Source: a virus (lineage: Duplodnaviria; Heunggongvirae; Uroviricota; Caudoviricetes). From it: a stretch of 64,000 nucleotides of DNA. Shown here piece after piece: positions 8,715 through 54,352 of the stretch (positions are counted from its first letter, which is position 1; each line of letters opens with the position of its first letter). Below the pieces are notes generated by a model. That model saw only the letters and a program-made list of their open reading frames with translations. It searched no databases and was not told where the DNA came from. The position numbers and the translations under genes are program-made. The stretch is taken from the IMG/VR virus record IMGVR_UViG_3300032318_002198; one strand, given 5' to 3'.

Positions 8715-9593
8715 ATGACGAATAAACCTAAGACTTATCGCAGTATTTTTATTAGTGACATACACCTCGGGACGAGAGACTGTAAAGCAGAACAACTTAA
8801 TAATTTTCTCAAACACAACACTTGTGAGACTTTGTATTTGGTCGGAGACGTGATAGATGCTTGGAAAATTCAACAAAACAAATGGCGATGGAAACAAAGT
8901 CATACCAATGTTGTCCGACGTGTGCTGGGCCATGCTAAAAGAGGTACTAGGGTAGTTTATATAGCAGGCAATCATGATGAGTTTTTGCGTCCAATGATCC
9001 CATATGGTTTTTCATTTGGCATGATAGAGATACACAATCAAATAGAACACATTGGTGCAGACGGTAAGCATTATCTCGTAGTACATGGTGATTTGTTTGA
9101 TGGCATTACTAGATTGGCTCCTTGGGTGAGCTTTTTAGGAGACAAAGCATATGATATCATGCTTGTACTCAATTCAAAATTTAATTGGATCCGTCACAGA
9201 CTGGGTTTTGGGTACTTTAGTCTTAGTCGTTATCTCAAGCACAGAGTAAAAAAAGCAGTAGACTTCATATTCAAGTTTGAAGAAAATCTAGCAGGTTATT
9301 GTAAAAAGCGTGGTTTTGATGGAGTTATCGTAGGTCACATCCACTCGGCTGAAATAAAAGAAATAGATGGCATTTGGTACGGCAATTCCGGTGATTGGGT
9401 CGAAAGTTGCACTGCCCTGTGTGAAACACACGATGGTGATTGGATTATTATTCAGTTAGTAGGAGATCAATTTCAGCCGGTGACAGTGCGACCCGTCCAT
9501 AGCTATCAAACACTAACAGGAGAACTTTGTATCCCTTGGTTTGAGCAGAAAGGATTTTCTGTTTTACAATATCAAGATCGCGACTCAAAGTAA
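8715..9593 (+). CDS. Calcineurin-like metallophosphoesterase (LpxH-like architecture)
   Basis: Motifs SDIHLG, LVGDVIDAW, IAGNHDEF and VVHGDLFDG. Confidence 0.65.
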   Translation: MTNKPKTYRSIFISDIHLGTRDCKAEQLNNFLKHNTCETLYLVGDVIDAWKIQQNKWRWKQSHTNVVRRVLGHAKRGTRVVYIAGNHDEFLRPMIPYGFSFGMIEIHNQIEHIGADGKHYLVVHGDLFDGITRLAPWVSFLGDKAYDIMLVLNSKFNWIRHRLGFGYFSLSRYLKHRVKKAVDFIFKFEENLAGYCKKRGFDGVIVGHIHSAEIKEIDGIWYGNSGDWVESCTALCETHDGDWIIIQLVGDQFQPVTVRPVHSYQTLTGELCIPWFEQKGFSVLQYQDRDSK

Positions 9594-9679
9594 ATGGGCT
9601 TTTGATTTCTACTACTAAGTTATCGTCTGCTACGAAGAAATCACAAATATAGGAAATAAATACAATAAGGAGAATGACG

Positions 9680-9853
9680 ATGATGTGGTTGATGATACTA
9701 GTAGCAGTACACATACACAATCCAAACGACATTCCAGGAAGAATAGAACTGACGTTTCAGGATCAGAAAACTTGTCAACAAACATTAGATACAATTAAAT
9801 GGTGGCTAAAGTTTGATAACTTTAAGATAACAGGGAGATGCGAAAAAAAATGA
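9680..9853 (+). CDS. Small hypothetical protein (57 aa)
   Basis: AAGGAG RBS 6 nt upstream of ATGATG; overlaps the PAP2 start. Not in the track (under 60 aa). The overlapping minus ORF 9448-9732 is more likely spurious. Confidence 0.35.
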   Translation: MMWLMILVAVHIHNPNDIPGRIELTFQDQKTCQQTLDTIKWWLKFDNFKITGRCEKK

Positions 9854-10380
9854 ATAATATCTTTAAAATAATTTTAGGGCTAGTTTTTATATTTTGTTCA
9901 ATATCGTCGTCGGCAAAAGAACTTAGACAAATAGGAGATTATCTACAAATTGCTATACCTGCTTATGCTATTGGTAGGGCCTACGGCTTAGATGATCAAG
10001 AAGGACTTAGACAAATGGGTACAGGATTGATTGTAAATTTAGCAGCAACACAAGCAATTAAAAAATCAACTCTACAAATGAGACCAGACGGTAGTAACAG
10101 ATTAAGTTTTCCTAGTGGTCACACATCTGCTGCATTTCAAGGTGCTGCATTTATACATAAAAGATATGGTTGGGACAAAGCCTGGCCGCACTACATTGCC
10201 GCTAGCATAGTTGGTTATAGTAGAGTAGAAAGTAATAGACATTATTGGAGAGATGTAATTGCAGGTGCAGCATTAGGAATAGGAGTAAGTTGGTATTTAA
10301 CAACACCAAGACAAGAATCTAGTCTGATTATATCTCATGATAGAAATTCTACTAATTTACTTTATATTGCGTCATTCTAA
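9850..10380 (+). CDS. PAP2-family lipid phosphatase, secreted or membrane (signal peptide). Alternative upstream start at 9838.
   Basis: Motifs KxxxxxxRP (MRPDGSNRLSFP), PSGHTS and SRVESNRHYWRDV. N-terminal signal peptide MNNIFKIILGLVFIFCSISSSA. Confidence 0.8.
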   Translation: MNNIFKIILGLVFIFCSISSSAKELRQIGDYLQIAIPAYAIGRAYGLDDQEGLRQMGTGLIVNLAATQAIKKSTLQMRPDGSNRLSFPSGHTSAAFQGAAFIHKRYGWDKAWPHYIAASIVGYSRVESNRHYWRDVIAGAALGIGVSWYLTTPRQESSLIISHDRNSTNLLYIASF

Positions 10381-11378
10381 TGAAAACAATCTTGATAATT
10401 ACTGACAATCTGAAAGATCAAATAAATGGAGTGGTTACGACCTATAAAAATATTGAGGCTTGTGCGATTTTGGATGGTTATCGCGTCGTTTATATTACTC
10501 CCGGGGACTTCTGCTACTTTAATTGTCCTGGCTACAACGAAGTCAAGATTGCCTATCCGAGGGAGATGGGCAAGAAGATTACGGAGATCAATCCGGATTA
10601 TATCCATATCGCCACAGAGGGTCTTGTTGGTCTGTTTGCTAGAAAATATCTTTCAAAACATAATATTAGGTACAATACTGCTTATCATACTAAGTTCCCT
10701 GAAGGACTTAGAGCCTTATTTGGCATTCCTGAGTCAGTTACTTGGCCTTTAATACGCTGGTTTCATAAACGTAGTAATCGAGTGCTAACTACTACCGATT
10801 CAATGGTTAACGAACTACAGAATCATGGGTTTGATAAAAATGTTATATCTTGGACTAGGGGAGTTGACTGCAACATTTTCTATCCTGCTACTGATTTTAC
10901 CAACACCGGTATGTTACTATGCGTTAGCAGAGTTAGTAAAGAAAAAAATTTAGAAGACTTTTTTCGTTTAGACTATCTGGGATATCGTAAGATTATGGTA
11001 GGGGATGGACCTATGTTGGAAGAATATAAAGCACAATACCCTAGCGTAGAGTTTGTAGGATTTAAAACAGGACACGAATTGGCTGAATACTACCGACAGG
11101 CGGATGTGTTCGTATTTCCAAGCCGTTGGGAAACATTTGGTATAGTTATGATAGAGGCTATGGCCTGTGGAACTCCTGTAGCAGCATACCCTTGCCAAGG
11201 ACCTTTAGATGTTATAGATGAAGGCATTACTGGTTGTATGAATGACGAATTGAAGCAAGCAGTAAAAGACGCCCTAATGTTGGATAGACAGCGTATTTGG
11301 GAAGGAAGTTTTCGCTGGTCTTGGGAAAATGCTTGGCAAATTTTTAAAGACAACTTAGTAGAAAAATTGGGCACATAA
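10380..11378 (+). CDS. Glycosyltransferase family 4 (GT-B)
   Basis: C-terminal FVFPSRWETFGIVMIEAMACGTPVAA, the GT4 E-x7-E region. Confidence 0.75.
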   Translation: MKTILIITDNLKDQINGVVTTYKNIEACAILDGYRVVYITPGDFCYFNCPGYNEVKIAYPREMGKKITEINPDYIHIATEGLVGLFARKYLSKHNIRYNTAYHTKFPEGLRALFGIPESVTWPLIRWFHKRSNRVLTTTDSMVNELQNHGFDKNVISWTRGVDCNIFYPATDFTNTGMLLCVSRVSKEKNLEDFFRLDYLGYRKIMVGDGPMLEEYKAQYPSVEFVGFKTGHELAEYYRQADVFVFPSRWETFGIVMIEAMACGTPVAAYPCQGPLDVIDEGITGCMNDELKQAVKDALMLDRQRIWEGSFRWSWENAWQIFKDNLVEKLGT

Positions 11379-11409
11379 TAACGTGTCGCTGGACTTGCAT
11401 AACCAGCAG

Positions 11410-11434
11410 TAGGGCCAAAAGGCCCTATTTTTTT
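11410..11434. terminator. Bidirectional rho-independent terminator (TAGGGCC-AAAA-GGCCCTA followed by T7) between convergent genes
   Basis: Perfect 7-bp GC stem with T-run on + and A-run on -. Confidence 0.7.
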
Positions 11435-11441
11435 GACTATA

Positions 11442-12269
11442 TTATCTTGACATAAACTCTTTGAGTTCAACTAATTGCGTATCATAGTCTGGTATATCAA
11501 ATTCAAACTCTTTTCTAGTGTCTACTAGAATTTTATTCACAGTTTTTGGACCTTGAGTTTTGTTGATCGTTTTGTTCAATCCAAATATGTTATTGATCTT
11601 TGAAAGTAAATCAAATTTATTGATATTTACATTGTTATTGACAACGTTGTATATTCCAGTAATTTTTGGATCGTTGATATATTTTTCAATACATTTGGCT
11701 AATTGCAATGTAGTAATTCCATTCCACCAAGCATTTTCCCAACCCGACAATGTTGATTCTTTATTGGTATATATCCATTGAAATAATCCACTGCCATTGG
11801 ATTTCAATTCCGGTCCTATGATGCTCATTCGAAATGTAATATCTTTGTTGTTAGATATCTCTCCCAACGACTTAGACCTACCATACACATTTGTTTCCGT
11901 ATGTGCATCTTGTTCTGTATAATTACCTTGTTTACCGTCGAACACACAATCAGTGGATATATGAATCAAACGAGTATTTCTATTGTATAACGACTGTGCA
12001 AGATATTGAGGGAACCAACTGTTGAGCATGATTGCCTTAGCAGGATTTTTTAAACTATCTGGTTGTAAATATCCGATACAATTAATCATAAAATCACATT
12101 GAGCATTTTGTGATTGTAAGAAATTATCCAATTGATCTTTGTTCTCAACATCTACATTGCAATCTGCATTATTTCTTGCAACAGTGAGCACATTGAAATT
12201 CTTTGATTTTAGGTATTTGGTGATCATATGACCAGCCATACCATTAGATCCTAACAAAACTATTTTCAT
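11442..12269 (-). CDS. dTDP-4-dehydrorhamnose reductase-like (RmlD-like) NAD(P)-dependent reductase
   Basis: N-terminal MKIVLLGSNGMAGHMI Rossmann motif; about 275 aa; downstream of an RmlC-like gene. Confidence 0.6.
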   Translation of the reverse strand: MKIVLLGSNGMAGHMITKYLKSKNFNVLTVARNNADCNVDVENKDQLDNFLQSQNAQCDFMINCIGYLQPDSLKNPAKAIMLNSWFPQYLAQSLYNRNTRLIHISTDCVFDGKQGNYTEQDAHTETNVYGRSKSLGEISNNKDITFRMSIIGPELKSNGSGLFQWIYTNKESTLSGWENAWWNGITTLQLAKCIEKYINDPKITGIYNVVNNNVNINKFDLLSKINNIFGLNKTINKTQGPKTVNKILVDTRKEFEFDIPDYDTQLVELKEFMSR

Positions 12270-12721
12270 CTATATTCATCCTTCCAAATGTTTACTATAT
12301 CATAGTCAAATCTAACATCGTCTTTGATTGATTCTTCTAGTGTACTTGTGCTGAAGAATTGTACTATGGTGCCTTGTTCTAGTGTTTTGAATCCATTTGC
12401 ATATCCTGGTGGTATGAATAGTATTCTTGGGTTAACAGCTGACAAAACTGTTTTGTATATATCTGGAATTACTGACAGCGAATTTTCTTTTATATCTATC
12501 ATCGTATCTAAACTAACTGCTCCAACAAGTGCAGAACCTTTTACTACATATATGTACTTGCCTTCATGTTTATGTCCATGCCATGCTCGGACAAAACCAG
12601 ACGAATGATTTTCGACTTGATAAAATCGTTTTACCGTATCAAAGTTAAAATCATTTACAAATCTCACCGAGCCCCTATCGTCGACAGAAACTCCACCAGT
12701 TATCAATTTTATTTGATCCAT
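12266..12721 (-). CDS. dTDP-4-dehydrorhamnose 3,5-epimerase-like cupin (RmlC-like)
   Basis: VRAWHGHKHEGKYIYVVKGSALVGAVSLD resembles the RmlC RGLHxQ...KLVRCV.GEVFDVAVD block. Confidence 0.55.
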   Translation of the reverse strand: MDQIKLITGGVSVDDRGSVRFVNDFNFDTVKRFYQVENHSSGFVRAWHGHKHEGKYIYVVKGSALVGAVSLDTMIDIKENSLSVIPDIYKTVLSAVNPRILFIPPGYANGFKTLEQGTIVQFFSTSTLEESIKDDVRFDYDIVNIWKDEYR

Positions 12722-13671
12722 AATAATTGTTTTTCGTCTTTCTTATTTTTTAGGTATATACCATTATGATATAATTTATCTTCAGGATTTTCGATTCGAT
12801 TTTCTTCAAATAAACGTATCATTCTAATAACTTCTTCTTCGACTGTTACTATCGGTTTATATTCAAAATCTCTTAAAGATTTGCTGTTATCTACTTGATA
12901 GTTTCGAGCATCTTGAAATGAAATTTCAGAATATTCGATTGTGGTATTAGGAATCAATTTAGCTACTCTTTCCCCAAGTTCTCGAATGACAACGTTTTCT
13001 TTTGAAAGTACATATACTCCATTGATTTTCTTTTCGCATGCCTCTGTTATATATCCTGCTATATCTTTGACAGCAATAATTGGCCGCCATTGATTGCCAC
13101 CATTGATTTTTATCTTACCTTCTTTCACGGCCTTCATCGTAAGAACATTTACAACTAAATCCAATCTGATTCTTGAGTAGGTATCTCCTAAACCAAATAC
13201 TGTTCCTAATCTGAATACAGTACCATTCTTTTTAAGTACATGTTCTTCTGCTCTTAATTTAGTAGAGGCATATGATGATAATGGGTTAGTAGGACTTTCT
13301 TCATTTAATAATCCATCTTGTGCTCCGTATACTGAACAGGTTGACATAAAGACGATGTGAATGTCATTTCCGACACCGTTGCAAAAATCTCTAATTGCAC
13401 GATAGTTTATCTCTTCGGTAAGTAAAGGATCTACGCTACAAGCAGGATCACCTACCAATGCTGCCATTAATACCACAATGTCGAATTGTTTAGATACATT
13501 TACTAGTTTTTCAGTATCACGTATGTCACCTGATATAAATGGGACTTCTTTTAAAAAACGTGATTCATACAATAAACTATCATAAACTGTTACATCAAAT
13601 CCTTTTTTAATAAGAGCGTCACAAGTTAGTCCACCAATATAACCTGCTCCTCCAACAACTAAAATATTCAT
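12709..13671 (-). CDS. NAD-dependent sugar epimerase/dehydratase (extended SDR)
   Basis: MNILVVGGAGYIGG Rossmann motif; 320 aa. Confidence 0.7.
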   Translation of the reverse strand: MNILVVGGAGYIGGLTCDALIKKGFDVTVYDSLLYESRFLKEVPFISGDIRDTEKLVNVSKQFDIVVLMAALVGDPACSVDPLLTEEINYRAIRDFCNGVGNDIHIVFMSTCSVYGAQDGLLNEESPTNPLSSYASTKLRAEEHVLKKNGTVFRLGTVFGLGDTYSRIRLDLVVNVLTMKAVKEGKIKINGGNQWRPIIAVKDIAGYITEACEKKINGVYVLSKENVVIRELGERVAKLIPNTTIEYSEISFQDARNYQVDNSKSLRDFEYKPIVTVEEEVIRMIRLFEENRIENPEDKLYHNGIYLKNKKDEKQLLWIK

Positions 13672-14279
13672 TTACTTTCCAATAAATATAAAAATAATTG
13701 GTCTTGCCTGAAGCTATCGCTTTTTATTATCTTAAAAAGAGAACTTATTTCTTTATCCCAGAATTGTTTATTTTCTTGTGTTAAATGTAATTCTAGACCC
13801 TCGGGATCACTATGCCTGTCGCTATGATTAGCAATGCCTATAAAAAATAGTTTTCCATAAGGTTTAATTTTTGATAAAACTTCTACAGATTTTGGTAACG
13901 GTAAATGTTCTATAACATCACAACAAATTAACAAATCATATTGTTTATCTAAGATTAATTCTTCCATCAAATTTATTTCTTTAAATGGAAAATCAAACTT
14001 TAAAAAATTAGATAAATCGGCAGCTAGTATATCAACATTAGTATCTTTAAAGAAACTAAGCATTGTCCCCTTCCCGGAACCTATATCTACTACAGATGTT
14101 GGTTTATATGTCGATGCTATGTTAACTAACCAATCATGTTTTGGCTCTGATAAATCTATGCCATCACAACAATAGTTTCCCACTGATGAAAAAATTCTTG
14201 TGTATACTTTTTTAAAATCCATATTAAATTCCATACCTTTTATATAATTCCTCTCTTTGTAAATCAATCTCTGCAACAT
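13668..14279 (-). CDS. Class I SAM-dependent methyltransferase. The true start is probably an internal Met near 14234 or 14222, avoiding the overlap with the upstream GT2.
   Basis: VVDIGSGKGTM is SAM-binding motif I. Confidence 0.6.
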   Translation of the reverse strand: MLQRLIYKERNYIKGMEFNMDFKKVYTRIFSSVGNYCCDGIDLSEPKHDWLVNIASTYKPTSVVDIGSGKGTMLSFFKDTNVDILAADLSNFLKFDFPFKEINLMEELILDKQYDLLICCDVIEHLPLPKSVEVLSKIKPYGKLFFIGIANHSDRHSDPEGLELHLTQENKQFWDKEISSLFKIIKSDSFRQDQLFLYLLESK

Positions 14280-14925
14280 GCAAATATGATCTTCTATCTC
14301 GGTGACATCTACAATATCCTAGTTGTTTGTCTAAATATCCAATGTCAATATTATTTAATTCCATTCTTACACAATAGTCATAGTCCTGAACATGGTTAAT
14401 CCCTTCGGCAAAACTACCCACAATTTCATAGACTTCTTTTTTATATATGAAACACATTCCTTGTGACCATCTATTTTTTATAAATGCGTTAGTAAAATAA
14501 TCTTCTTTAGATGCTACAACTTTAGTTCCGTCCGGAAACAAATAATAGAAACTACTGTATATAAAACTTTTATTAGAAGATTCTATACAATTGATTAATT
14601 CTTCAAAGCAGTTAGGTGAATATATGTTATCACTAGTTATCCACGAAATAAATTTATGATTGTTACTTAATGCGGCAGTATGTCCAGAATTTAAAGCAGA
14701 GCCAATAAATTTATTAGATTCATGTCTAATATAGTTAATTTTTATTTCAGGATGACCGGAAATAAATTCTTTAATTATAGATACAGAGTTATCTGTAGAT
14801 GCGTCATCGACTATGTATAAAGTAAAATCTTTATAAGTTTGATTTTTTATACTGTCTAGTAATTCTAATATATACTCTTCATAATTGTAATGAGGTAAAA
14901 TTATGGCTAATTTTGATGTATTCAT
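14224..14925 (-). CDS. Glycosyltransferase family 2
   Basis: LAIILPHYNYEEYILELLDSIKNQTYKDFTLYIVDDASTDNS, a canonical GT2 N-terminus. Confidence 0.75.
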   Translation of the reverse strand: MNTSKLAIILPHYNYEEYILELLDSIKNQTYKDFTLYIVDDASTDNSVSIIKEFISGHPEIKINYIRHESNKFIGSALNSGHTAALSNNHKFISWITSDNIYSPNCFEELINCIESSNKSFIYSSFYYLFPDGTKVVASKEDYFTNAFIKNRWSQGMCFIYKKEVYEIVGSFAEGINHVQDYDYCVRMELNNIDIGYLDKQLGYCRCHRDRRSYLHVAEIDLQREELYKRYGI

Positions 14926-16239
14926 TTATTTGTTTATTATTAATTTAAACCTAATATCCGGTCCATTCGGTTCGTTGGGGATCTTAACAGCTTCTTGTAC
15001 CGTAATATTAATGTCGTCCCAGTTATATATTTTTCCATTAACATACAAAGGTTTTGTTGAATCAAAATAATCAAAAGTCCTAGTTGTTAGCGGTAATTTA
15101 TGAGTAGGATCTGTCCAGAAATTATCAGATCCTGCATAAGGAGAATCAATATTGATTACAGCTCCGTTACAGCATACTCTATATATTTCTCTTAAAAACG
15201 GAATAAAGTTTTCTTTGGAAATATGTTCTAGTACATGATGCATTCTTATTTCGGTTACTGTATTATTGGCAAAAGGCCATGGAAATATTTCTAAATCATG
15301 TTTAACATCGCATACTGTGTTACCACTGTCAACATTGACCCATCCCTGAAGATACTCGGTGCCGCATCCTAAATTAAGTTTTTTCATTTTTATTTTATTA
15401 ATAATTTGTATTAAACTTTCGACATATCTTTTATAGGTTAAACCTTCCGTAGAACTTCTTCTACTACGTATCGGTTTTAAAATGTTTTCTAAAATATTAA
15501 TCAATCCGTTTAGATCGTTTGGTTTAAAAACATAATCAACCGGAAAATCGCCAACGAATCCAACATCGGCGCTAATAATTTCTTTTCCGCACGACAATGC
15601 TTCTAAAATAATCATTGGACCTCCTTCCCATAATGAAGGCACTAAAATATAATCAGTGTCATGAATTTGTGCTGGATATAATGAATATTCTTCATCGGTA
15701 AAATATTCAACTTCGACATTTTTAGATTTTAATTTATCTACAACAGCATCCCAATCTTTGCCAACAAATTTAAATCTAAAATTTTCAACAATTGGATCGT
15801 CTACTAGATCTAACATAAAATGAAAGCCCTTGCCTTCGTATTTGCCACGTTGAAATATTCCTATTTTAGGTTTGTATTGAGTAAATTTAGTGTTTACCTC
15901 TGCCGGAAAAAGTACAGACATTTTATTTTCATCAAAGATTGATTTAAATTTTTCATAATATCTGGAACACATATGAATTATATAGTCTAAACTTAAACAA
16001 TTTTTATTAACAGTTTCTATAGAATCTAAATCCATATGCGTAAAAAATCCAATATCTATGGTTTTAGATTTTTGAACGAAACAATTTTGTATATCTACAT
16101 ATATGTTACAATCGACGTCATCGGATGATTGATTAGACAATCTAAAATCATATCCTTGATTTTTACCTTCGTTAACAATACGCTCGGCAATTTTTTGCAA
16201 GATCCAACCGCTGTGAACGGTTACTATATTAATAACCAT
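14926..16239 (-). CDS. Bifunctional glycosyltransferase (GT-B C-terminal-half-like) fused to a SAM methyltransferase domain
   Basis: VPSLWEGGPMIILEALSCGKEIIS (GT4-type) is followed by LNLGCGTEYLQGWVNVD (methyltransferase motif I). Confidence 0.55.
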   Translation of the reverse strand: MVINIVTVHSGWILQKIAERIVNEGKNQGYDFRLSNQSSDDVDCNIYVDIQNCFVQKSKTIDIGFFTHMDLDSIETVNKNCLSLDYIIHMCSRYYEKFKSIFDENKMSVLFPAEVNTKFTQYKPKIGIFQRGKYEGKGFHFMLDLVDDPIVENFRFKFVGKDWDAVVDKLKSKNVEVEYFTDEEYSLYPAQIHDTDYILVPSLWEGGPMIILEALSCGKEIISADVGFVGDFPVDYVFKPNDLNGLINILENILKPIRSRRSSTEGLTYKRYVESLIQIINKIKMKKLNLGCGTEYLQGWVNVDSGNTVCDVKHDLEIFPWPFANNTVTEIRMHHVLEHISKENFIPFLREIYRVCCNGAVINIDSPYAGSDNFWTDPTHKLPLTTRTFDYFDSTKPLYVNGKIYNWDDINITVQEAVKIPNEPNGPDIRFKLIINK

Positions 16240-16250
16240 TTAATTTATAC

Positions 16251-17327
16251 CTAGTTGATGTGGTTGGATAATAATATATTCAACACAGTTTGTGATACAT
16301 TTTTTTTGATATATTCCTCGGGTACATTCCAATTGTTCGGTTTATTATCGATAATAAAGTTATAACACCTAAGAATACTATCAACATTTAATCCACTAAT
16401 AATATTAGATCCACACCAAACTGTTTCAGGACGTTCCGTACTATCTCTAATCGTTATAGTCGGTATGTTAAAAATACACATTTCCTCTTGTACTGTTCCG
16501 CTATCAGAAATAGCCATCTTACTATTCTTTTCTAAATTAATAAAATCAAAAAAGCCAAACGGTTCTGACACAATTATATTTTTTGATTGCAAATTTAATT
16601 TTTCCATTCTGTTTTTAGTTCTTGGGTGACAACTAAAAACAACTTTATTATCTTTTGAAATAACTTCTAACGCAGAGAAAATGTTTTTTAACCGTTGATC
16701 AACATCAACATTTTCAGATCGATGTGCCGTTACAATTACATATTGAGCTTTTTCTAAATTTAGTTCATTCAAAATATTAGAAGAATCTATTTGATCTCGG
16801 TAATATTCGATTACTTCATTTATGGGGTTTCCGACTACAAAAATTTTATCATTCGCTATACCTTCTCTTAATAAATTTTGTCGACTTGTTTCAGTATAAG
16901 GCATATTGATCGATGAAATAGTATCGATAATTTTTCTATTCTTTTCCTCGGGAACTTTGAGATCGTAACATCTATTACCCGCTTCCATGTGATAGACCGG
17001 TACTCCTAAACGTTCGCATACGATTGCTGCTAAACTTGAGTTAGTGTCACCCAGTATTAATACTTTATCTGGTTTAAAGGAATTAATAGCATTTTCTACA
17101 CCCACGAATATCTTACCTAACTGTTCAGATAAAGAATTTGATTTACTGTCAATTATAAAATCACACTGTCGAACTCCTAACTGTGAGAAAAATATATCAT
17201 TAAGATTAGCATCATAATTTTGTCCTGTGTGAAGGATTTTATGATTCACATATCTGTCTAATAAAGGTATAATTCTCGACAGTCTGATAATTTCGGGTCT
17301 TGTTCCTAAAATAGTTAAAACATTCAT
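16251..17327 (-). CDS. wecB: UDP-N-acetylglucosamine 2-epimerase (non-hydrolysing, WecB-like)
   Basis: LTILGTRPEIIRLS, HTGQNYD, LGDTNSSLA and HMEAGNR are all in the WecB/MnaA order. Confidence 0.8.
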   Translation of the reverse strand: MNVLTILGTRPEIIRLSRIIPLLDRYVNHKILHTGQNYDANLNDIFFSQLGVRQCDFIIDSKSNSLSEQLGKIFVGVENAINSFKPDKVLILGDTNSSLAAIVCERLGVPVYHMEAGNRCYDLKVPEEKNRKIIDTISSINMPYTETSRQNLLREGIANDKIFVVGNPINEVIEYYRDQIDSSNILNELNLEKAQYVIVTAHRSENVDVDQRLKNIFSALEVISKDNKVVFSCHPRTKNRMEKLNLQSKNIIVSEPFGFFDFINLEKNSKMAISDSGTVQEEMCIFNIPTITIRDSTERPETVWCGSNIISGLNVDSILRCYNFIIDNKPNNWNVPEEYIKKNVSQTVLNILLSNHIN

Positions 17328-17367
17328 AAAGTTCTTTCTTTAATTATTATTATACACAATTCGGTTA

Positions 17368-18984
17368 TCAAAGGTCAATAAGTTTCCTGTTAATTAATGA
17401 TGGTATTCTACTTTTAATAGTTTCGGGTAAGTTAGATGTAGGTATGTTTATTTTTTCTAATGGTTGTTCATTAAAATGAACTTTTTTATTTTTAATTGAT
17501 GTCTCTAATAATAATTGATTTTCCTTGAACTGTTCATGCATGTTAGATTCACAAACGCTGTTAAGTTTTTGCACTACAGCATCTAATCCTCCAAGATAAG
17601 AAAAATGCCATCCACCGTGTACATGCAATCTATTACCTTTAAATCTTTGATTTCTAATTTCTTGAGGAGTTGTTCCATCTAACAATATATGCCATCTTGT
17701 TAAATGACTACCACACCATTTATAATTGGCTTTGTAATTTAGATAATAATAATACATGTCCTGTTCCAGACCAAATGTCAATTGAACATTATTATTATGA
17801 TAAAATTTAATAGCTTCGTGATTAGGAATCTCATCTAAATCAGATATCATTACTATATCATCACGATTTAAATCTAATCTATCTAACCCTACTCTAATGT
17901 TATTTCTTTGATAATGTTCATTATCCCAAGAACCATACGCAGTAGATATAGGATTGTCAACAATTACATGTACAATTTTATGTAAGTATTTTGAAAAACG
18001 GTGTTTATTCTTTTCAAAGTATAATTCTTTTTTATTACCCAATTGAGTGAATCTTGCTTCGACTAATACAAAATGATCTATTATAGGATCAAGATATTCT
18101 AACCGTATCTCCAAAAGATCCAATTCGTATTCTAATCCAAACATGAAACAATCCACTATTTGATCTTTGAAATTTGATCGATTTTTATCAAAAACCTTGT
18201 GTTCATTAAAGTTACCTATTTGTGTTTCATTTTGAATAGATTCCAATAATACTCTATTTTTTTCTACTAACGAAGGTAATAAATCCGTAGGGAATTGACT
18301 AGTATGATATTGATGTACACAAAGAGGCGATTCGACAAATTTAACATTTAAATTCTTTCGTTTAATTCTGATAACAAATTCGTCATCATCATAACTCACT
18401 CCGTTTGAAAATCTTTCATCAAATCCATTTAATTCTGTTAAATCAAATCTAGTAATTGCAGACATAAAATGATACATCACCGGTCTATATGTTGGATGAT
18501 TATACCAAGCAGAGATACTAGGATCAACTACTCCTACATTGTTAAATGTAACGACACCGCCGCCCTTCATTATGTTTGTCTCGTGCTCATTTGTAGCATA
18601 ACAATTAAAAGAAAAATATTCTCCAATGTTTAAATTATTTTCAACGTATGAGATAATATCGCCTATGTGACAACATTCAGGATTTTGAATAATTATCTTA
18701 TCACCTTTAGCGTGTCTAAATCCAGTATTGTAAACCACACATGGATTATAATATGATCTTTCGTCATATAGATCGGACATTTTTATTACGGTGATAGGTA
18801 ATTGAGGGTAATTCATTTTACCGATCAATGGATCGTGTACTTGATCACTGAAATCATCTACGATAATTATTTCATAGTCAGTGGATTTTGTGTAACGTAT
18901 GGTTTCTAAGGTATATAGTAAATGTGGCAATCTATTTTTATATGCCATGACGATTGAAATCATCTTAAATCCTTTGCAAAGCAA
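17368..18984 (-). CDS. Two-domain glycosyltransferase: N-terminal GT2 plus C-terminal GT-A-like domain (GT17/MGAT3-like?)
   Basis: ISIVMAYKNRLPHLLYTLETI (GT2 start). The C-terminal half has DCFMFGLEYELDLLEIRLEYLDPIIDHFVLVEA...ISDLDEIP. Confidence 0.55.
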   Translation of the reverse strand: MLCKGFKMISIVMAYKNRLPHLLYTLETIRYTKSTDYEIIIVDDFSDQVHDPLIGKMNYPQLPITVIKMSDLYDERSYYNPCVVYNTGFRHAKGDKIIIQNPECCHIGDIISYVENNLNIGEYFSFNCYATNEHETNIMKGGGVVTFNNVGVVDPSISAWYNHPTYRPVMYHFMSAITRFDLTELNGFDERFSNGVSYDDDEFVIRIKRKNLNVKFVESPLCVHQYHTSQFPTDLLPSLVEKNRVLLESIQNETQIGNFNEHKVFDKNRSNFKDQIVDCFMFGLEYELDLLEIRLEYLDPIIDHFVLVEARFTQLGNKKELYFEKNKHRFSKYLHKIVHVIVDNPISTAYGSWDNEHYQRNNIRVGLDRLDLNRDDIVMISDLDEIPNHEAIKFYHNNNVQLTFGLEQDMYYYYLNYKANYKWCGSHLTRWHILLDGTTPQEIRNQRFKGNRLHVHGGWHFSYLGGLDAVVQKLNSVCESNMHEQFKENQLLLETSIKNKKVHFNEQPLEKINIPTSNLPETIKSRIPSLINRKLIDL

Positions 18985-19040
18985 GATATTTATTGCTTAA
19001 AAAACATCTTGTTTTGTTTTTTGAAGTTGCTTCAAAAAAT

Positions 19041-19070
19041 TTGATAAATTAATACAACATATGTTATAAT
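19041..19070 (+). promoter_or_regulatory. Sigma70-like promoter (TTGATA, 18 nt spacer, TATAAT) with AAGGAG RBS before 19089
   Basis: TTGATA at 19041-19046, TATAAT at 19065-19070, AAGGAG at 19077-19082. Confidence 0.5.
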
Positions 19071-19088
19071 AGAGTAAAGGAGAATATC

Positions 19089-20853: not shown

Positions 20854-21543
20854 TTGCAAAATAAAGAAAAACACCTATCAGAAATAATTAGAGATAGAAT
20901 AAAAAATCACAACACTTCGCCCAGATTTCATGCTAATGATAACATATCAGAATTTATTAAAGAAGGCGAACTAGATCTTTTAGTCGATGAAGTAGCAGAA
21001 AAATTTCAAGGTGTATTAACATCATTGGTAATAGATACTGAAAATGACCATAATACACAAGACACTGCCCGACGTGTGGCAAAGATGTTTATATTAGAAA
21101 CATTCAGCGGCCGTTATAGACCAGTACCAAAAATTACATCATTTCCAAATGTAGGCTATCGAAGTTTATATACCACTGGCCCTATTAGTATTCGCAGTAC
21201 CTGTGCGCATCATTTCCAAAATATAGTAGGACGTTGTTGGGTTGGAATCATCCCGCAGGATGAAGTTATCGGATTAAGCAAGTTTAATCGTTTAGTTCAT
21301 CACATTTGTGAACGTCCACAAATTCAAGAAGAAATGACTTCTCAGATAGCTGATGCGCTGAAACAATATGCCAAGACTGAACATATCGCTGTGGTCGTTA
21401 AGGCAGAACATCATTGTATGACCATGCGCGGAGTGCGAGAACACGAAAATGATATGGTTACTGCTATTATGTTGGGTGCATTTAATACCGATGCTGCACT
21501 TAAAAAAGAATTCTACGACATTCTTAAACTAAACAACAAATAA
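20854..21543 (+). CDS. folE: GTP cyclohydrolase I (FolE)
   Basis: STCAHHFQNIVGRCWVGIIP...VIGLSKFNRLVHHICERPQIQEEMTSQIA is co-linear with the FolE SxCEHH...GLSK...RLQVQERLT block. Confidence 0.7.
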   Translation: MQNKEKHLSEIIRDRIKNHNTSPRFHANDNISEFIKEGELDLLVDEVAEKFQGVLTSLVIDTENDHNTQDTARRVAKMFILETFSGRYRPVPKITSFPNVGYRSLYTTGPISIRSTCAHHFQNIVGRCWVGIIPQDEVIGLSKFNRLVHHICERPQIQEEMTSQIADALKQYAKTEHIAVVVKAEHHCMTMRGVREHENDMVTAIMLGAFNTDAALKKEFYDILKLNNK

Positions 21544-21577: not shown

Positions 21578-22318
21578 ATGAAAAACAAGGGAAAATTGAA
21601 TATACCAACAAAGAAAACTTTTGTTGCACCTCCTCCTACTACTACAGCACCTGCTGCAACTACACAAGGTCAACTAGGCACTCCGGGTCAACGACCACCT
21701 AGTGTTATGATTGCAGTTCCTGCTATGGAAATGGTTAATGCAGAATTTGCACAACACTTGGCTATGGCTGCTGCTAACATGGTTGCTCATGGAATTAAGA
21801 TCAACTGTGCATTTAATATTGGTTCAGTAATTACTATCGCAAGACGTAATCTAGTTGAGATTTTTATGAAGTCGGATTTTGACTATATTTGGTGGGTTGA
21901 CAGCGATATGAAATTCCCCATCGATACTCCTATTAGATTACTTAAGAGAAATAAGGAAATCGTTGGTGCAAACTATCGTCGACGTCGTTTTCCTAATCCT
22001 AACTTTACAGGAATGGTTGGTAGTGCTGGAAATTTCCAAGAATTTCAAACTACTGATAATAGTCCTGCTATGGAATTATGCGATGTACTACCGCACGGTC
22101 TTTGTTTAATCAAACGTGAGGTATACGAAAAAGTAGCACAACCGCACTACTTACAAGAATTCATTCCACATTTGAATCTTGAAATTGGCGAGGATATTTA
22201 CTTTTTCCAAAAATGTCAACAAGCTGGATATCAGATCTGGTGTGACCAAGAATTGAGCCGCGAAACTTCACACATTGGAATATTCCACTTTAATTACAAC
22301 TTATCTGTACCTCGCTAA
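21578..22318 (+). CDS. Putative GT-A-like glycosyltransferase with Pro/Thr-rich N-terminal linker
   Basis: YIWWVDSDMKF is DxD-like; N-terminus PPPTTTAPAATTQGQLGTPGQRPP. Confidence 0.3.
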   Translation: MKNKGKLNIPTKKTFVAPPPTTTAPAATTQGQLGTPGQRPPSVMIAVPAMEMVNAEFAQHLAMAAANMVAHGIKINCAFNIGSVITIARRNLVEIFMKSDFDYIWWVDSDMKFPIDTPIRLLKRNKEIVGANYRRRRFPNPNFTGMVGSAGNFQEFQTTDNSPAMELCDVLPHGLCLIKREVYEKVAQPHYLQEFIPHLNLEIGEDIYFFQKCQQAGYQIWCDQELSRETSHIGIFHFNYNLSVPR

Positions 22319-31582: not shown

Positions 31583-31633
31583 GTTACATTAGTTATAAAC
31601 TTGGTAAACAATTTACAAAAAAGGAAATTTAAT

Positions 31634-32437
31634 ATGAAGCGTATTTTTACACTAGGCATTCTCGCAGCAGCAGTTATTGCAGCCGGCTGCACTCGAATCG
31701 AAACCGGAGAGGTGGGAGTTCGTATCGGCTTTGACAAGCAGGTCAAGCCCGGTGAGCTTCAACCCGGATCGTTCAATCAAACACTGGTTGGTGAGGTGCT
31801 AACATTCCCTATCAAGGATGTTGCTGTTCCTGTTGAGAATATGACTCCGTTGGCCAAGGACAACAGTACGATGAAGGACGTTGACATGACGGTGATCTAT
31901 TCGATCAACCCCAGTCAGGTCAGTGAACTCTATACCAGCAAAAATAAGAGTTTTCACGCCATTAATAAGGATGACACTTTGTTGATGTTCAACTATATGC
32001 ATCAGGCTGCACGTAATGCTCTTTACAAGGCATCGCGAGAATACGAAGCGTTGGACATGAACGATAACCGTGTTGCTATCGAACAGAAGGTGCGCGAAAA
32101 TCTTCTGGCAACTCTGTCAAGCGAAAAGTTGGATGGGAGTCTTTCTATTCAACAGGTTTTGGTTCGTCAGTTGACTCCAGCTGATAGCGTGGTTGCAAGT
32201 GCAAACGAATTAGTTCGTTCCAAGAATGAATTGCGACAGAAGGAAGTTGAGGTTAAGACTGCCGAGGCTGAAAGTCGTCGTATGCAAGCACTTGCTTCTC
32301 AAGGTAGCCAAAGTATTGCATATATGAATGCACAAACTGAACAAATGAAGGCACAGGCTATGCTTGAGGCTGCTAAGAAGGGTTCGTTGATGATGGTTCC
32401 TGTTGGCACCACTCCAATGATCAACGTCAATAAGTAA
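31634..32437 (+). CDS. Lipoprotein (lipobox AAGC), possibly SPFH/band-7-like
   Basis: MKRIFTLGILAAAVIAAGC. AAGGAAA RBS. Confidence 0.5.
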   Translation: MKRIFTLGILAAAVIAAGCTRIETGEVGVRIGFDKQVKPGELQPGSFNQTLVGEVLTFPIKDVAVPVENMTPLAKDNSTMKDVDMTVIYSINPSQVSELYTSKNKSFHAINKDDTLLMFNYMHQAARNALYKASREYEALDMNDNRVAIEQKVRENLLATLSSEKLDGSLSIQQVLVRQLTPADSVVASANELVRSKNELRQKEVEVKTAEAESRRMQALASQGSQSIAYMNAQTEQMKAQAMLEAAKKGSLMMVPVGTTPMINVNK

Positions 32438-42981: not shown

Positions 42982-43308
42982 ATGAAATTCAGTGAACTAA
43001 AAAGATTAGTTGATCTATACTACCGAGACGACTACGAAGATCCAGAAGTGGTTATCCAAATCAAACTACCATACTCCACTGTCGGTGGTCAACCTACTGT
43101 GAAAGTAAAGAATATCCAAATGGGCTTTGATTGGGACCAAGGTAAATTCATCATAACACCAGAAGAAGACCTAACACCAAGTGATCGTGACTTTGCAAAG
43201 CAAATGAAGGATATGCAAGAGCGTGCTGGATGGGCAGACTACGAAAATCGTAATCTTAAAGCCGAGATATCAAAACTAAAGAGAAAACTAAATAATGAAA
43301 AAGTTTGA
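42982..43308 (+). CDS. Hypothetical protein
   Basis: 108 aa ORF; AAGGAG RBS. Confidence 0.5.
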   Translation: MKFSELKRLVDLYYRDDYEDPEVVIQIKLPYSTVGGQPTVKVKNIQMGFDWDQGKFIITPEEDLTPSDRDFAKQMKDMQERAGWADYENRNLKAEISKLKRKLNNEKV

Positions 43309-46812: not shown

Positions 46813-47021
46813 TGTTTCGTCCGCAAGAAATGAATGGGGAATTTAAATTAAAAAATAATCCCATAGGACATTATCATTATCATATAAGATCTCATACTGA
46901 TAAACATTTTTTAAGAGTTGGTGGATATCTGCATTATCTTGCTGACCATGCTCCTCTAGCTGTTAATAAAAAATGGAAAAAAGTATTTCGTAAATTTTGT
47001 AAACTACATCCTAAATTCTAA
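46812..47021 (+). CDS. His-rich small protein (70 aa)
   Basis: TAATG overlaps on both sides; HYHYHIRSHTDKH. Confidence 0.35.
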   Translation: MFRPQEMNGEFKLKNNPIGHYHYHIRSHTDKHFLRVGGYLHYLADHAPLAVNKKWKKVFRKFCKLHPKF

Positions 47022-51439: not shown

Positions 51440-54352
51440 ATGACAACCCGTGCTCCATTATCACAAGTTACACAAGATCCTGGATTAACTAATCCTACCG
51501 AACAGGAAACAATATTTGTTGTAGTCGATTCAGGTGTTGAACAGAAACTAACTGTTGCACGAGCTCGCCAATTATTAAACACACAAGGTATTCAAGGTGC
51601 TAGTGGTGTACAAGGACGTCAAGGTTTCCAAGGACCACAAGGGTTTCAAGGACGTCAAGGTTTTCAAGGTGCTCAAGGTTTGCAAGGAGCATCTGGTGTT
51701 CAAGGATTTACTGGATTTCAAGGTTTCCAAGGTGCGCAGGGTATTCAAGGTCGTCAAGGATTTACTGGTACCCAGGGTGTTGGCGGGCCAGGTATACAAG
51801 GATTTCCAGGTACACAAGGTTTTCAAGGTGCTCAGGGTTTTGGTGGTGCAGGTATTCAAGGTGCTCAAGGTGCCCAAGGTTTCCAAGGATTTACAGGTCA
51901 TCAAGGTTTCCAAGGACATCAAGGTATGCAGGGTTCTCAGGGATTCCAAGGATTCCAAGGTGCTCAGGGAGTGGGCGGGGCACCGACCGGTCCTCAAGGT
52001 TTTCAAGGTTTTGATGGTCGCCAAGGACAGCTAGGAAGACAAGGTTTCCAAGGTGCTGATGGTATACAAGGAAGACAAGGTTTCCAAGGTGCTGATGGTA
52101 TACAAGGAGCTCAAGGATTCGGAGGCACAGGAATTCAAGGTGCTCAAGGTGCTATAGGTACTCAAGGTTTCCAAGGTGCTCAGGGTATACAAGGATTGCA
52201 AGGATTTCAAGGTGCTCAAGGTGCACCATCGGCAGGCGGTGTACAAGGTGCGCAAGGACCTCAAGGTATTCAAGGACCTCAAGGTTTCCAAGGTAATTCA
52301 GGTTTTCAAGGCGCTCAAGGTTTCCAAGGAAGTCAAGGAAATCTAGGAAATCGAGGTACTCAAGGATTTGATGGATTTCAAGGTATTCAAGGAGCTCAGG
52401 GATTACAAGGTGCTCAGGGTGTTGGTGGACTTGGTATACAAGGATTTCCAGGTACACAAGGTTTTCAAGGTGCGCAAGGAAATCAAGGTTTCCAAGGTCA
52501 TCAAGGATTCCAAGGCGCTCAAGGTATGGGTGGAGCACCAACGGGACCACAAGGTTTCCAGGGTGCGCAGGGATTCCAGGGCAATCAAGGATTCCAAGGT
52601 GCGCAAGGATTCGGTGGCGTTGGTTTCCAAGGTCAACCTGGTTTCCAAGGCGAAACAGGTTTCCAAGGTTTCCAAGGCAATCAAGGTTTCCAAGGTGCTC
52701 AAGGTATAGGCGGTGCACCGACCGGTCCTCAAGGTTTTCAAGGCCATCAAGGTTTTCAAGGACGTCAAGGTTTCCAAGGTGCCCAAGGTGTCGGTGGGCC
52801 TGGTATACAAGGATTTCCAGGTACACAAGGTATTCAAGGTGCGCAAGGATTCGGTGGACCAGGTATTCAAGGTCCGCAAGGTATTCAAGGACCGCAAGGT
52901 ATTCAAGGACGTCAAGGTTTCCAAGGTGCGCAGGGTGTCGGCGGGCCAGGTATTCAAGGATTTCCAGGCACACAAGGTTTCCAGGGTGCTCAAGGACCGC
53001 AAGGTATTCAAGGTCGCCAAGGTTTTCAAGGTTTCCAAGGTGTTCAAGGCGCTCAAGGTAATATAGGTGGTCCAGGTACACAAGGTTTCCAAGGTCACCA
53101 AGGATTTCAAGGTAATCAAGGTAATCAAGGTTCTATAGGATTAAGAGGTATTCAAGGTTCTCAAGGTGCCCAAGGTTTCCAAGGTGCTCAAGGTATTCAA
53201 GGTTTTCAAGGAGCGCAAGGTTTTGCTGGAGTCGGGAACCAAGGTGTTCAAGGCGCTCAAGGTATACAAGGACATCAGGGATTCCAAGGTGCTCAAGGCC
53301 CTAGAGGTCAACAAGGTATACAGGGTCCTGAAGGTATACAAGGGCCTCAAGGATTTACTGGCAATCAAGGCTTCGTGGGAGATGCCGGTGCTCAAGGGCC
53401 CCAAGGATATCAAGGATATCAAGGTATTCAAGGTGCGCAAGGTTTACAAGGTGCTCGAGGAACTCAAGGATTAGATGGCGTTCAAGGTTCATCAGGTGTG
53501 ATAGGAATACAAGGTGCTCAAGGTTCTCAAGGACAGGTAGGCCCGCAAGGATTACCTGGTATTCAAGGTTCTCAAGGACGAGATGGATACCAAGGACCAC
53601 AAGGTTTTACCGGACGACAAGGTGTTCAAGGAGCACCGGGTTTCCAAGGAGAACCAGGTTTCCAAGGAAATCAAGGTTTTGCTGGACTAGGTGCTCAAGG
53701 TTTCCAAGGTGCTCCTGGAATTCTAGGAGTACAAGGACGAGATGGATTCCAAGGTCAACCAGGTTTCCAAGGTAATCCAGGTTTCCAAGGTGCTCCAGGT
53801 CCAAACGGTATTCCCGGTAGTCCAGGTCCAAACGGTATTCCCGGTAGTCCAGGTCCAAACGGTATTCCCGGTAGTCCAGGTCCAAACGGTATTCCCGGTA
53901 GTCCAGGTCCAAACGGTAGTCCAGGTCCAAACGGTACCCCCGGAACATTGAGTTTAGCAAATGCTGTAGTGTATACCAACGGCTCAGCGACCGCACAAAC
54001 CACAACCAGTCTCCGTTATGACGGATCTACCTTAAGTGTTACTGGAGCAATTGTTGCAACCGGTGACATAACTGCATTTTCAGACGAAAGACTAAAGACC
54101 AATATTACAACTATTGACGATGCCTTAACTAAACTTGATCAGATTAATGGATATTTGTATACTAATTCAACTACTGGTAAACGTCACACTGGTGTTATTG
54201 CACAAGAAATTATTAAAGTATTACCAGAAGCAGTAATGAAAAATAACAATGATTATTATTCAGTTGCATACGGTAATTTAATTGGTTTATTAATACAAGG
54301 TATTAAGGAACTCAATACAGAAGTAAATTCATTAAAGAAAAAATTACAGTAA
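51440..54352 (+). CDS. Collagen-like (G-X-Y triple-helix repeat) tail fibre with C-terminal S74 intramolecular-chaperone autoproteolytic domain
   Basis: About 750 residues of uninterrupted GXY (GFQGAQG...). The C-terminus [29 protein letters not shown]...[15 protein letters not shown] matches peptidase_S74. Confidence 0.85.
53795..53920 (+). repeat. Four perfect tandem copies of a 27-nt unit (CCAGGTCCAAACGGTATTCCCGGTAGT, encoding PGPNGIPGS) plus a partial copy, inside the collagen-like gene
   Basis: Exact nucleotide identity across all four units. Confidence 0.85.

Follow-up and report, generated by a model that had tools for sequence, protein, structure and literature searches.

A predicted glycan-biosynthesis island in a jumbo phage genome: two modules at one insertion site, a cassette for a probable rare nucleotide sugar and a possible link to a collagen-like tail fibre

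Bacterial pathways to uridine diphosphate (UDP)-linked 6-deoxy-L-N-acetylhexosamines (6-deoxy-L-HexNAc) include CapE/CapF/CapG of Staphylococcus aureus, and further ones are WbjB/C/D of Pseudomonas aeruginosa and WbvB/R/D of Vibrio cholerae. Among viruses, the genes Mg534-Mg539 of Megavirus chilensis have a dehydratase/reductase/2-epimerase arrangement that leads to UDP-L-N-acetylrhamnosamine (RhaNAc) and UDP-L-N-acetylquinovosamine (QuiNAc) for the fibril glycans (PMC10117803). A different trio is found in Campylobacter jejuni, where the C4-dehydrogenase Cj1427 opens a heptose modification that continues with the C3/C5-epimerase Cj1430 and the C4-reductase Cj1428 (PMC10680097). Virion glycosylation has also been described for mycobacteriophages (Freeman et al. 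2023, as cited in PMC12619734). In this study we analysed a stretch of 64,000 nucleotides (hereafter the window) of the tailed-virus record IMGVR_UViG_3300032318_002198, in which an island of eleven genes, A to K, encodes enzymes of glycan biosynthesis. Large phages and giant viruses with glycan clusters have been described before, so this kind of feature is not new. We read the pathway encoded here as a new version of the routes to rare L-HexNAc sugars and not as a rhamnose pathway.

The island consists of the plus-strand genes A, B and C (module 1) and the minus-strand genes D to K (module 2). A preliminary description of this DNA had placed the same eleven open reading frames (ORFs) at the same coordinates, in the same order and on the same strands, and each of them has a significant family match, but it counted two plus-strand genes where there are three. 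Its proposal that the block was an acquired module is strongly supported by three observations. We collected viral contigs encoding relatives of the flanking genes (136 loci) and searched them with all island proteins; genes D to K were found in none of the 136. Alignment by blastn with one relative, L084, joins window position 8661 to position 19062 with only 13 bp between them, and L084 has an intact DUF2828/VWA gene with the dCMP deaminase gene 274 bp downstream, that is, an empty site, where the terminator hairpin leads directly into the TTGACT-N17-TATAAT promoter of a small ORF. A sister contig from another sample, L389, which was found through its 91% identical homologue of protein I, carries K-J-I-H-methyltransferase-F-E-D between the same flanks at 81-84% nucleotide identity and has no A-B-C. 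Homology between the window and L389 ends at 8656 and restarts at 11410, both points lying at copies of one terminator, so that module 1 (8657-11409) is bracketed and independent of module 2 (11410-19061). With the site of L084 empty and the minus-strand genes alone in L389, the island is thus made of two independent modules. The terminator-plus-TTGACT element forms direct repeats around module 1 (8629-8656 and 11408-11434) and is present as a single copy in both L084 and L389; the copy in L084 doubles as the -35 region of the promoter of the next operon. The preliminary description had seen a bidirectional terminator at 11410-11434 that brackets the block. What we find is a hairpin at 11408-11429 with a T-run on the plus strand only, and hence not bidirectional by the usual criterion, which separates the two modules and has its twin at 8629-8652. 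At the right junction a promoter-like TTGATA-18-TATAAT lies at 19041-19070. Sigma-70-like promoter matches show no excess (67 versus 62.5 +/- 6.9 in shuffled sequence).

The site itself is variable. Relatives, including L098, L137 and L154, have other cargo of 3.6-8.7 kb at the same place, comprising 2-oxoglutarate (2OG)-Fe(II) oxygenases, a JmjC protein, another phosphoesterase, a GT1 glycosyltransferase (GT) and an S-adenosylhomocysteine hydrolase, which makes the site a cargo hotspot. The flanks of island-bearing and island-free genomes are 72-87% identical, and in a further relative, from an NCBI assembly, a homologue of K (86% identity) adjoins this right flank. The check on base composition that had been proposed gives a split answer: the genes of the minus-strand block have a lower mean GC content (0.309 versus 0.369 +/- 0.042 in 60 other genes; Mann-Whitney p = 3e-5), whereas the plus-strand trio does not differ from the rest of the window genes. 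Gene G has no counterpart in L389, where an unrelated FkbM-type methyltransferase gene (L389 9836-10540) takes its place, a single-gene methyltransferase swap within an otherwise collinear block of 82-84% identity. Our best explanation, held as a whole with middling confidence, is that the island is strain-variable cargo that arose by two independent insertions at one hotspot of a jumbo phage. This hotspot lies between the DUF2828/VWA gene and the operon of the small ORF and dCMP deaminase, and module 2 would originate from a pool of low-GC aquatic phages.

Four genes of module 2, J, F, E and D, are predicted to form a nucleotide-sugar cassette that converts a UDP-HexNAc of the host into a rare stereoisomer. 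J would invert C2, F would oxidise C4, E would rearrange the resulting keto-sugar at C3 and/or C5, and D would reduce it. UDP-GlcNAc is the most likely starting sugar, and an L configuration is probable for the product. Such a cassette would be a variant of the route to L-RhaNAc, L-QuiNAc or L-N-acetylfucosamine (L-FucNAc), with a Cj1427-like dehydrogenase and a cupin in place of the inverting 4,6-dehydratase. F is an extended short-chain dehydrogenase/reductase (SDR). Its best match in the PDB is 6vo6 (2e-40, the next at 7e-15), which we take to be Cj1427. The active site of 4,6-dehydratases reads Thr-Asp-Glu in RmlB or Thr-Asp-Lys in PseB and CapE, but F and five homologues have an invariant (Ser/Thr)-Cys-Ser at this position, within an S-T-C-S-V-Y-G motif. 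With S-T-C-S in place of T-D-E or T-D-K, F is not classed as a 4,6-dehydratase, and since the dehydratase residues are absent, the product may retain its 6-hydroxyl. Metagenomic homologues of F at E<1e-30 number more than 7000, and the best 120 are all at least 74% identical. J passes the TIGR00236 (wecB) model (269 bits versus a cut-off of 210) and is closer to S. aureus CapG, the 2-epimerase of the UDP-L-FucNAc pathway (7.9e-95, 321 bits), than to Escherichia coli WecB (4e-41, 144 bits), although a true UDP-GlcNAc 2-epimerase from an archaeon reaches 260 bits as well, which limits the assignment of the substrate of J. D has the STDxVFDG and YGxSK motifs and reaches 86.4 bits with TIGR01214 against a cut-off of 224.05. 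For E, a protein of 151 residues, the TIGR01221 score is 36.6 bits against a cut-off of 155.75 and the sole PDB relative is RmlC (6e-7). It has the family-invariant RAxHxH and keeps the catalytic His, but the position of the RmlC acid Tyr is Phe, Tyr or Trp across the family. Because E matches RmlC but is short, with an FdtA-like RAxHxH and no conserved Tyr, it is called from its sequence a keto-sugar epimerase or keto-isomerase, and no finer call is made.

The company that these genes keep elsewhere is consistent with the predicted cassette. J homologues of 60-71% identity occur in about 40 viral contigs; across 80 viral contigs with J homologues, a D homologue lies within 10 kb in 60 and a homologue of the N-terminal GT2 domain of K in 61. 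Where the homologues are closest (J 60-71%, D 55-62% identical), J and D flank a 2OG oxygenase and a PF02719 enzyme, a dehydratase of the PseB/CapE/Mg534 class, whereas the family scan finds no PF02719 dehydratase in the window. With the 4,6-dehydratase replaced by F and E at its place, the window cassette is not the canonical L-RhaNAc/L-QuiNAc pathway, and the canonical L-QuiNAc/L-FucNAc reading was rejected for the same want of a dehydratase. A dTDP-L-rhamnose pathway was likewise rejected, as the equivalog scores for RmlC and RmlD are unmet and RmlA and RmlB are missing; no nucleotidyltransferase or dehydratase of these families was matched in the island or in the other scanned ORFs. The earlier labels RmlD-like and RmlC-like therefore hold for family membership only, since both proteins fall far under the equivalog cut-offs. 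J-F-E-D are contiguous in five viral contigs (L042, L054, L066, L072 and L081), and the four genes are clustered in contigs of metagenome-assembled genomes (MAGs) assigned to Fibrobacter, Ca. Actinomarina and Patescibacteria (L218-L221) and more loosely in a Solirubrobacterales contig. A methyltransferase-F-E-D unit also stands beside PhoH in abundant phage-like contigs of 100-230 kb, where the upstream transferase cargo is variable, and one phage-like contig (L388) has the F-E-D trio without WecB nearby. The window cassette is a mosaic: the nearest relatives of F (78% identity) and E (59%) sit on phage contigs of 27-29% GC, those of J and D in the dehydratase-type cassettes. Read most simply, F and E would take over the function of the dehydratase/epimerase ahead of the same reductase. 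In the literature library that we searched, we found no description of a UDP-HexNAc pathway of this kind.

The remaining genes of module 2 suggest what would be done with the activated sugar. With four GT domains (GT2, GT1 and GT2+GT17) and two methyltransferase domains, the module would be a cytoplasmic glycan-building unit, in which the transferase domains of H, I and K assemble a short oligosaccharide that G and the methyltransferase domain of I O-methylate. G is called as a protein of 188 amino acids in a public assembly, and H has weak matches of the TuaG/EpsE/WcaA type. The fusion of a GT with a methyltransferase that had been described for I is confirmed as a compact GT1 followed by a methyltransferase domain, which is weak in Pfam and clear in PHROGs (phrog_6636, 2.2e-14); homologues of the GT part stand alone at about 285 amino acids, and the fusion is found only in close relatives. 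K had been described as a two-domain GT2, but its C-terminal domain is GT17-like (PF04724, 94.2 bits versus a gathering cut-off of 26). Translation of K probably begins at 18963, at an ATG with an AAGGA ribosome-binding site in front of it, within an ORF that runs to a TTG at 18984. The predicted model of the GT17-like domain has a GT-A fold (pLDDT 74), and a fold search gives generic GT-A matches in the PDB at template-modelling (TM) scores of 0.35-0.48, with LH3 and COLGALT1 among them and not distinctive, while the top matches in BFVD are GT17-annotated proteins of uncultured tailed phages and algal viruses. Querying the PDB with the sequences of K and I and with the GT17 profile yielded no match, and hence no solved relative to compare with the activity of family GT17, the transfer of GlcNAc in beta-1,4 linkage to a core mannose of N-glycans. 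None of the glycosyltransferases C, H, I and K has a membrane segment, and a scan of the island for membrane spans shows only the hydrophobic N-terminus of B and two borderline stretches in the Rossmann core of F. The family searches of the island and the scanned window ORFs revealed neither an initiating phosphoglycosyl transferase nor a flippase, polymerase, ligase or Gtr-type membrane protein, and no GtrA flippase, GtrB bactoprenol transferase, GtrC or O-acetyltransferase family is matched in the island. The claim of a self-contained pathway is therefore borne out for the conserved cassette of 2-epimerase, SDR, cupin and reductase but not for the nucleotidyltransferase, 4,6-dehydratase, initiating transferase, flippase and polymerase, which are missing. 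Soluble transferases without export genes, as predicted here, fit direct glycosylation of a soluble acceptor in the cytoplasm.

Table 1. Positions of the island genes, the junction elements and other window features, with the match or analysis on which each rests.
Feature	Position	Strand	Basis
A: calcineurin-like metallophosphoesterase, distantly LpxH-like	8715..9593	+	PF00149 9.8e-9
B: PAP2 lipid-phosphate phosphatase, N-terminal signal-like segment	9838..10380	+	PF01569 3.9e-14
C: GT4-family (GT-B) glycosyltransferase, no membrane segment	10380..11378	+	PF13692, PF00534 1.7e-23; PF13439 3e-14
D: RmlD-like SDR keto-reductase	11442..12269	-	PF04321 (RmlD_sub_bind) 2.7e-26
E: small RmlC/FdtA-superfamily cupin, predicted to act on a keto-sugar	12266..12721	-	PF00908 (dTDP_sugar_isom) 3.1e-12; PF05523 0.009
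F: extended SDR, Cj1427-like (C4-dehydrogenase type)	12709..13671	-	Epimerase, 1.3e-29
G: S-adenosylmethionine (SAM) methyltransferase (Methyltransf_23)	13668..14234	-	PF13489 5.4e-8; likely ATG 14234, ORF to 14279
H: GT2 (GT-A) glycosyltransferase, no membrane segment	14224..14925	-	PF00535 4.2e-28
I: compact GT1 (residues 1-285) and SAM methyltransferase domain (about 267-392)	14926..16239	-	PF13692 9.1e-10
J: WecB-family non-hydrolysing UDP-HexNAc 2-epimerase, closest to CapG	16251..17327	-	PF02350 (Epimerase_2) 1.4e-91
K: GT2 (N-terminal) and GT17-like (C-terminal)	17368..18963	-	PF00535 8.3e-7; PF04724 1.1e-26
Inserted island, module 1 and module 2	8657..19061	.	10.4 kb; blastn against empty-site relative L084
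Terminator hairpin copy 1, native to the DUF2828/VWA gene, then TTTTTTTTGACTT	8629..8652	+	terminator scan
Terminator hairpin copy 2, boundary of module 1 and module 2	11408..11429	+	terminator scan
Divergent promoter region; right junction ~19061/19062	18985..19088	.	alignment with L084 and L389
Collagen-like tail fibre, candidate acceptor	51440..54352	+	Collagen 2.1e-103; Peptidase_S74 2.3e-15; tail-fibre PHROGs
Window cargo: transposase	55-1365		phrog_506
Window cargo: SPFH/Band-7 protein	31601-32437		
Window cargo: Gad2-family protein	43295-43918		
Window cargo: UvdE endonuclease	47021-48037		
Window cargo: Fe/Mn superoxide dismutase	48419-49024		
Window cargo: short, fragment-like DNA pol III alpha domain ORF	56321-56896		
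Window cargo: cytidylyltransferase-like protein	57678-58151		

The candidate acceptor in the window is the collagen-like tail fibre, and a link between it and the island receives new, indirect support from the genomic neighbourhood of GT17-like genes. The GT17-like domain of K has 443 matches in viral contigs, including giant-virus MAGs. With redundant loci removed, 10 of 65 viral loci for GT17-like genes have a collagen-like ORF (20 or more Gly-X-Y triplets) no more than 10 kb away, as does 1 of 158 viral control loci (odds ratio 28, Fisher p = 2e-5). In the contigs L298-L300 (8001-15048) a tandem-GT17 gene, a gene for a FUT8-like transferase and two collagen-like genes adjoin one another, with 2OG-Fe(II) oxygenases and DUF6445 upstream; L369 (9998-18986) repeats this arrangement, with a GT17x2 gene followed by a GT-sized gene of 311 amino acids and two collagen-like ORFs. 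The collagen-like genes of these loci share the C-terminal chaperone-type domain of the window fibre, at 32-33% identity over about 110 residues. The fibre itself has 254 Gly-X-Y triplets, with Gln at Y in 165 of them and Phe at X in 65; its repeats are dominated by Gly-Phe-Gln and Gly-Ala-Gln, and a Pro-rich run (GPNGIPGSP) stands ahead of the C-terminal chaperone domain. Animal and Mimivirus collagens are glycosylated at hydroxylysine and BclA at GXT sites.

From these genes we infer the substrate, the product, the sequence of reactions and, most of all, the acceptor, and the DNA sequence cannot separate a role in host-surface glycans from one in virion proteins. We tentatively favour surface proteins of the phage virion as the acceptor, by analogy with Megavirinae fibrils, chloroviruses and mycobacteriophages. 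Remodelling of the host envelope is an alternative that we regard, taken as a whole, as rather unlikely. The rare methylated sugar would then be added at the cytoplasmic face to undecaprenyl-diphosphate-linked intermediates of O-antigen, capsule or lipooligosaccharide and the product exported by Wzx/Wzy or ABC systems of the host, while the LpxH-like phosphoesterase, the PAP2 protein and the GT4 would alter phosphates of lipid A or of the carrier lipid, and the altered surface would block superinfection or the adsorption of progeny to debris. The signal-like N-terminus and intact motifs of B, the weak LpxE, undecaprenyl-diphosphatase and LpxH likeness in module 1, and the resemblance of H and C to O-antigen, teichuronic-acid and colanic-acid transferases all speak for such a role, and similar clusters of cyanomyoviruses are usually read in this way (PMC12801897). 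However, this published host-surface reading is itself putative, the LpxH and LpxE matches all lie far under the family cut-offs, and the envelope-type genes belong to module 1, which is independent of module 2 and absent from L389. The want of initiating transferase, flippase, polymerase, ligase and Gtr-type protein in the island and the scanned window ORFs also argues against it. A role in glycan hypermodification of the phage DNA, which the preliminary description did not raise and in which the cassette sugar would be placed on a modified base as a protection from restriction or other nucleases, appears to us very unlikely. Known DNA-glycosylation clusters of phages do combine sugar epimerases with one or more GT-A or GT-B enzymes among DNA-metabolism genes (bioRxiv 10.1101/2023.12.21.572611), and related cassettes lie beside PhoH or a helicase. 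Yet neither a ThyS-like hydroxymethylase nor a TET/JBP-type (5mYOX/TET) dioxygenase was found in the scanned ORFs or in Pfam calls over most of the 64 kb, a scan that left out small ORFs and the genome beyond the window. In addition, four GT and two methyltransferase domains appear to exceed the needs of the described mono- and disaccharide systems (bioRxiv 10.1101/2023.12.21.572611), and the island is absent from close relatives that have the same nucleotide-metabolism genes. That the block is host DNA misjoined to phage DNA, as its lower GC and the strand switch might suggest, has practically no chance of being right. The same gene order and junctions are present in two more public assemblies, ERZ21844512 and Logan ERR2848567, and L389 carries the same block in another sample. 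For F, E, J, D and K, the comparison of nearest neighbours, host or phage, that had been proposed leads to phage-like contigs. The agreement of independent assemblies refutes this explanation.

Several points weigh against the favoured reading, that a cassette-made sugar is put on virion surface proteins. F could be a plain 4-epimerase, and the chemistry of E is uncertain, given the missing RmlC tyrosine and the FdtA-like HxH motif. The fibre lies 32 kb from the island, and its collagen part has no lysine and few Ser/Thr residues and thus neither hydroxylysine nor BclA-type GXT sites. The statistics of the GT17-collagen association ignore phylogeny and pool phages with giant viruses. The acceptor might also be a lipid-linked one of the host, since GT2 and GT4 enzymes of bacterial O-antigen synthesis are likewise soluble, and the island adjoins genes for a dCMP deaminase, GTP cyclohydrolase I and a MazG-like protein, as a DNA-directed cluster might. 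A bolder reading would make the F-E-D trio, with or without J, an undescribed pathway that is widespread in abundant aquatic phages and yields, by C4 oxidation in place of 4,6-dehydration, a non-deoxygenated L-N-acetylhexosamine for collagen-like tail fibres, a speculation that we think unlikely to be right.

Module 1 is a separate unit that more probably acts on lipid-linked phosphates or glycolipids of the host envelope. It looks envelope-directed because B has a signal-like N-terminus (a hydrophobic segment at residues 4-29) with intact KxxxxxxRP, PSGH and SRxxxxxHxxxD motifs, from which B is also predicted to act outside the cytoplasm, and because the only solved relatives of A are LpxH proteins (E about 4e-4); the NCBIfam LpxH match of A, at 2.2e-11, is weak and far under its cut-off. 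B matches LpxE and undecaprenyl-diphosphatase weakly and has a GC content at third codon positions (GC3) of 0.17. A copy of A that is 85% identical stands at the same place in L143, and in L152 an A homologue lies beside a C homologue (57% identical) with no B between them. The PDB matches of C are generic GT4 enzymes. They include cyanobacterial tetrahydrobiopterin glucosyltransferases (E about 1e-9, C-terminal domain only), which is probably family resemblance and, given the pterin-type genes of the window, a weak lead. Between A and B there is a putative ORF of 59 amino acids with a hydrophobic N-terminus (9674-9853), which overlaps the start of B.

The sequence indicates that the source is an uncultured jumbo phage distantly related to Pseudomonas phage PA5oct, because its clamp loader is 58% identical to that of the PA5oct group (40-47% to other jumbo phages) and a megablast search of 50,697 phage records brought up nothing for the island or for a 20-kb core region. 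Searches of cultured phages by tblastn with J returned distant or contaminant records only, and a flanking ORF of 242 amino acids had no match among them. Among the predicted products of the window are a T4-type clamp loader, tail-fibre proteins, PhoH and a holin-like protein, and many of its ORFs have no family match. Next to the hotspot, the DUF2828/DUF7788 gene (TROVE-like 'RNA-binding protein', 6075-8612) is split into two ORFs by a segment of ~1.07 kb (about 6549-7619), which holds a minus-strand ORF of 263 amino acids (6615-7406) without a Pfam or PHROG match; an Rfam scan of this segment found no intron family. The gene is unsplit in L084 and L389, and L140 has the same insert. The ORF of the L140 insert is 96% identical while its flanking exons are only 75-81% identical, which points to a mobile element, possibly of the homing-endonuclease type. 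On the other side of the hotspot, a protein of 246 amino acids (21578-22318) is kept at 73-81% identity in nearly all relatives and matches phrog_1574 (2.7e-21) and, weakly, two glycosyltransferase PHROGs, so the core genome may have its own transferase adjoining the hotspot. GTP cyclohydrolase I (20854-21543) and a PTPS/QueD-family protein (45704-46291) are both encoded in the window, which suggests a 7-deazaguanine (DNA base modification) or a pterin pathway.

What makes this locus of interest is the set of empty, partially filled and full sites, an abundant uncharacterised cassette and the association of GT17-like genes with collagen-like genes. Glycan clusters are common in large phages, and to our knowledge neither product nor target has been established for any of them. 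Sites that are empty, hold module 2 alone or hold both modules provide a natural comparison in near-isogenic backgrounds. The cassette is compact, with four genes, and has thousands of close homologues of its SDR, so that its product would annotate many environmental phage genomes, and the GT17-like transferase and the collagen-like fibre are a testable pairing. If the sugar were indeed placed on collagen-like fibres by transferases that include the GT17-like domain, phages would have an equivalent of the collagen and fibril glycosylation known from animals and giant viruses. A strain-variable rare sugar on virion fibres could also have effects on host range, on recognition by grazers or immune systems, and on phage engineering.

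Compared with Megavirus, the window shares a viral reductase (~270 amino acids) and a WecB-type 2-epimerase (~360 amino acids) joined to glycosyltransferases, and the viral contigs whose homologues come closest to J and D (L002-L041) show the same dehydratase/reductase/2-epimerase trio as Megavirus. The window differs in having a Cj1427-like SDR and a cupin and no inverting 4,6-dehydratase/5-epimerase of the Mg534/CapE type; the host here is a bacterium, and glycosylation of the Megavirus virion has been shown whereas here it is a prediction. Features of the UDP-6-deoxy-L-HexNAc pathways that are present are an SDR C4-reductase (D) beside the pathway genes and a CapG-type 2-epimerase (J). As in CapE/CapF/CapG, J is closest to CapG, and reductase and cupin functions occur together, which are fused in CapF and encoded by separate genes here; unlike in that system, there is no PF02719 dehydratase, and F is without the Asp-Lys or Asp-Glu pair. 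With the C. jejuni trio the cassette would share a three-step logic without dehydration; F lacks the dehydratase residues and has 6vo6 as its best solved relative. The substrate of that trio is GDP-heptose, however, whereas no heptose-nucleotide genes were seen here, and the linkage to a UDP-HexNAc 2-epimerase suggests that the substrate of F-E-D is a different one; E is also shorter than RmlC (about 140-150 amino acids) and has no conserved tyrosine. The chlorovirus PBCV-1 protein A064R is a GT-GT-methyltransferase protein. The capsid or tail proteins of PBCV-1 and the mycobacteriophages are modified in the cytoplasm by soluble transferases and methyltransferases of viral origin, and I is likewise a fusion of a GT and a methyltransferase, a likeness in domain make-up. 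An epimerase and sequential transferases beside DNA-metabolism genes are also seen in phage clusters for sugar hypermodification of DNA (bioRxiv 10.1101/2023.12.21.572611), but the window scans found no enzyme that generates 5-hydroxymethyl-pyrimidine. Finally, the T4-like cyanomyoviruses P-SSM2, S-SCSM1 and S-SCSM2R have, like the window, several GTs, NDP-sugar epimerases and an RmlC-like gene, with putative functions (PMC12801897); the window differs from these clusters in lineage and gene set, and its insertion is mapped to the base with the help of an empty-site relative.

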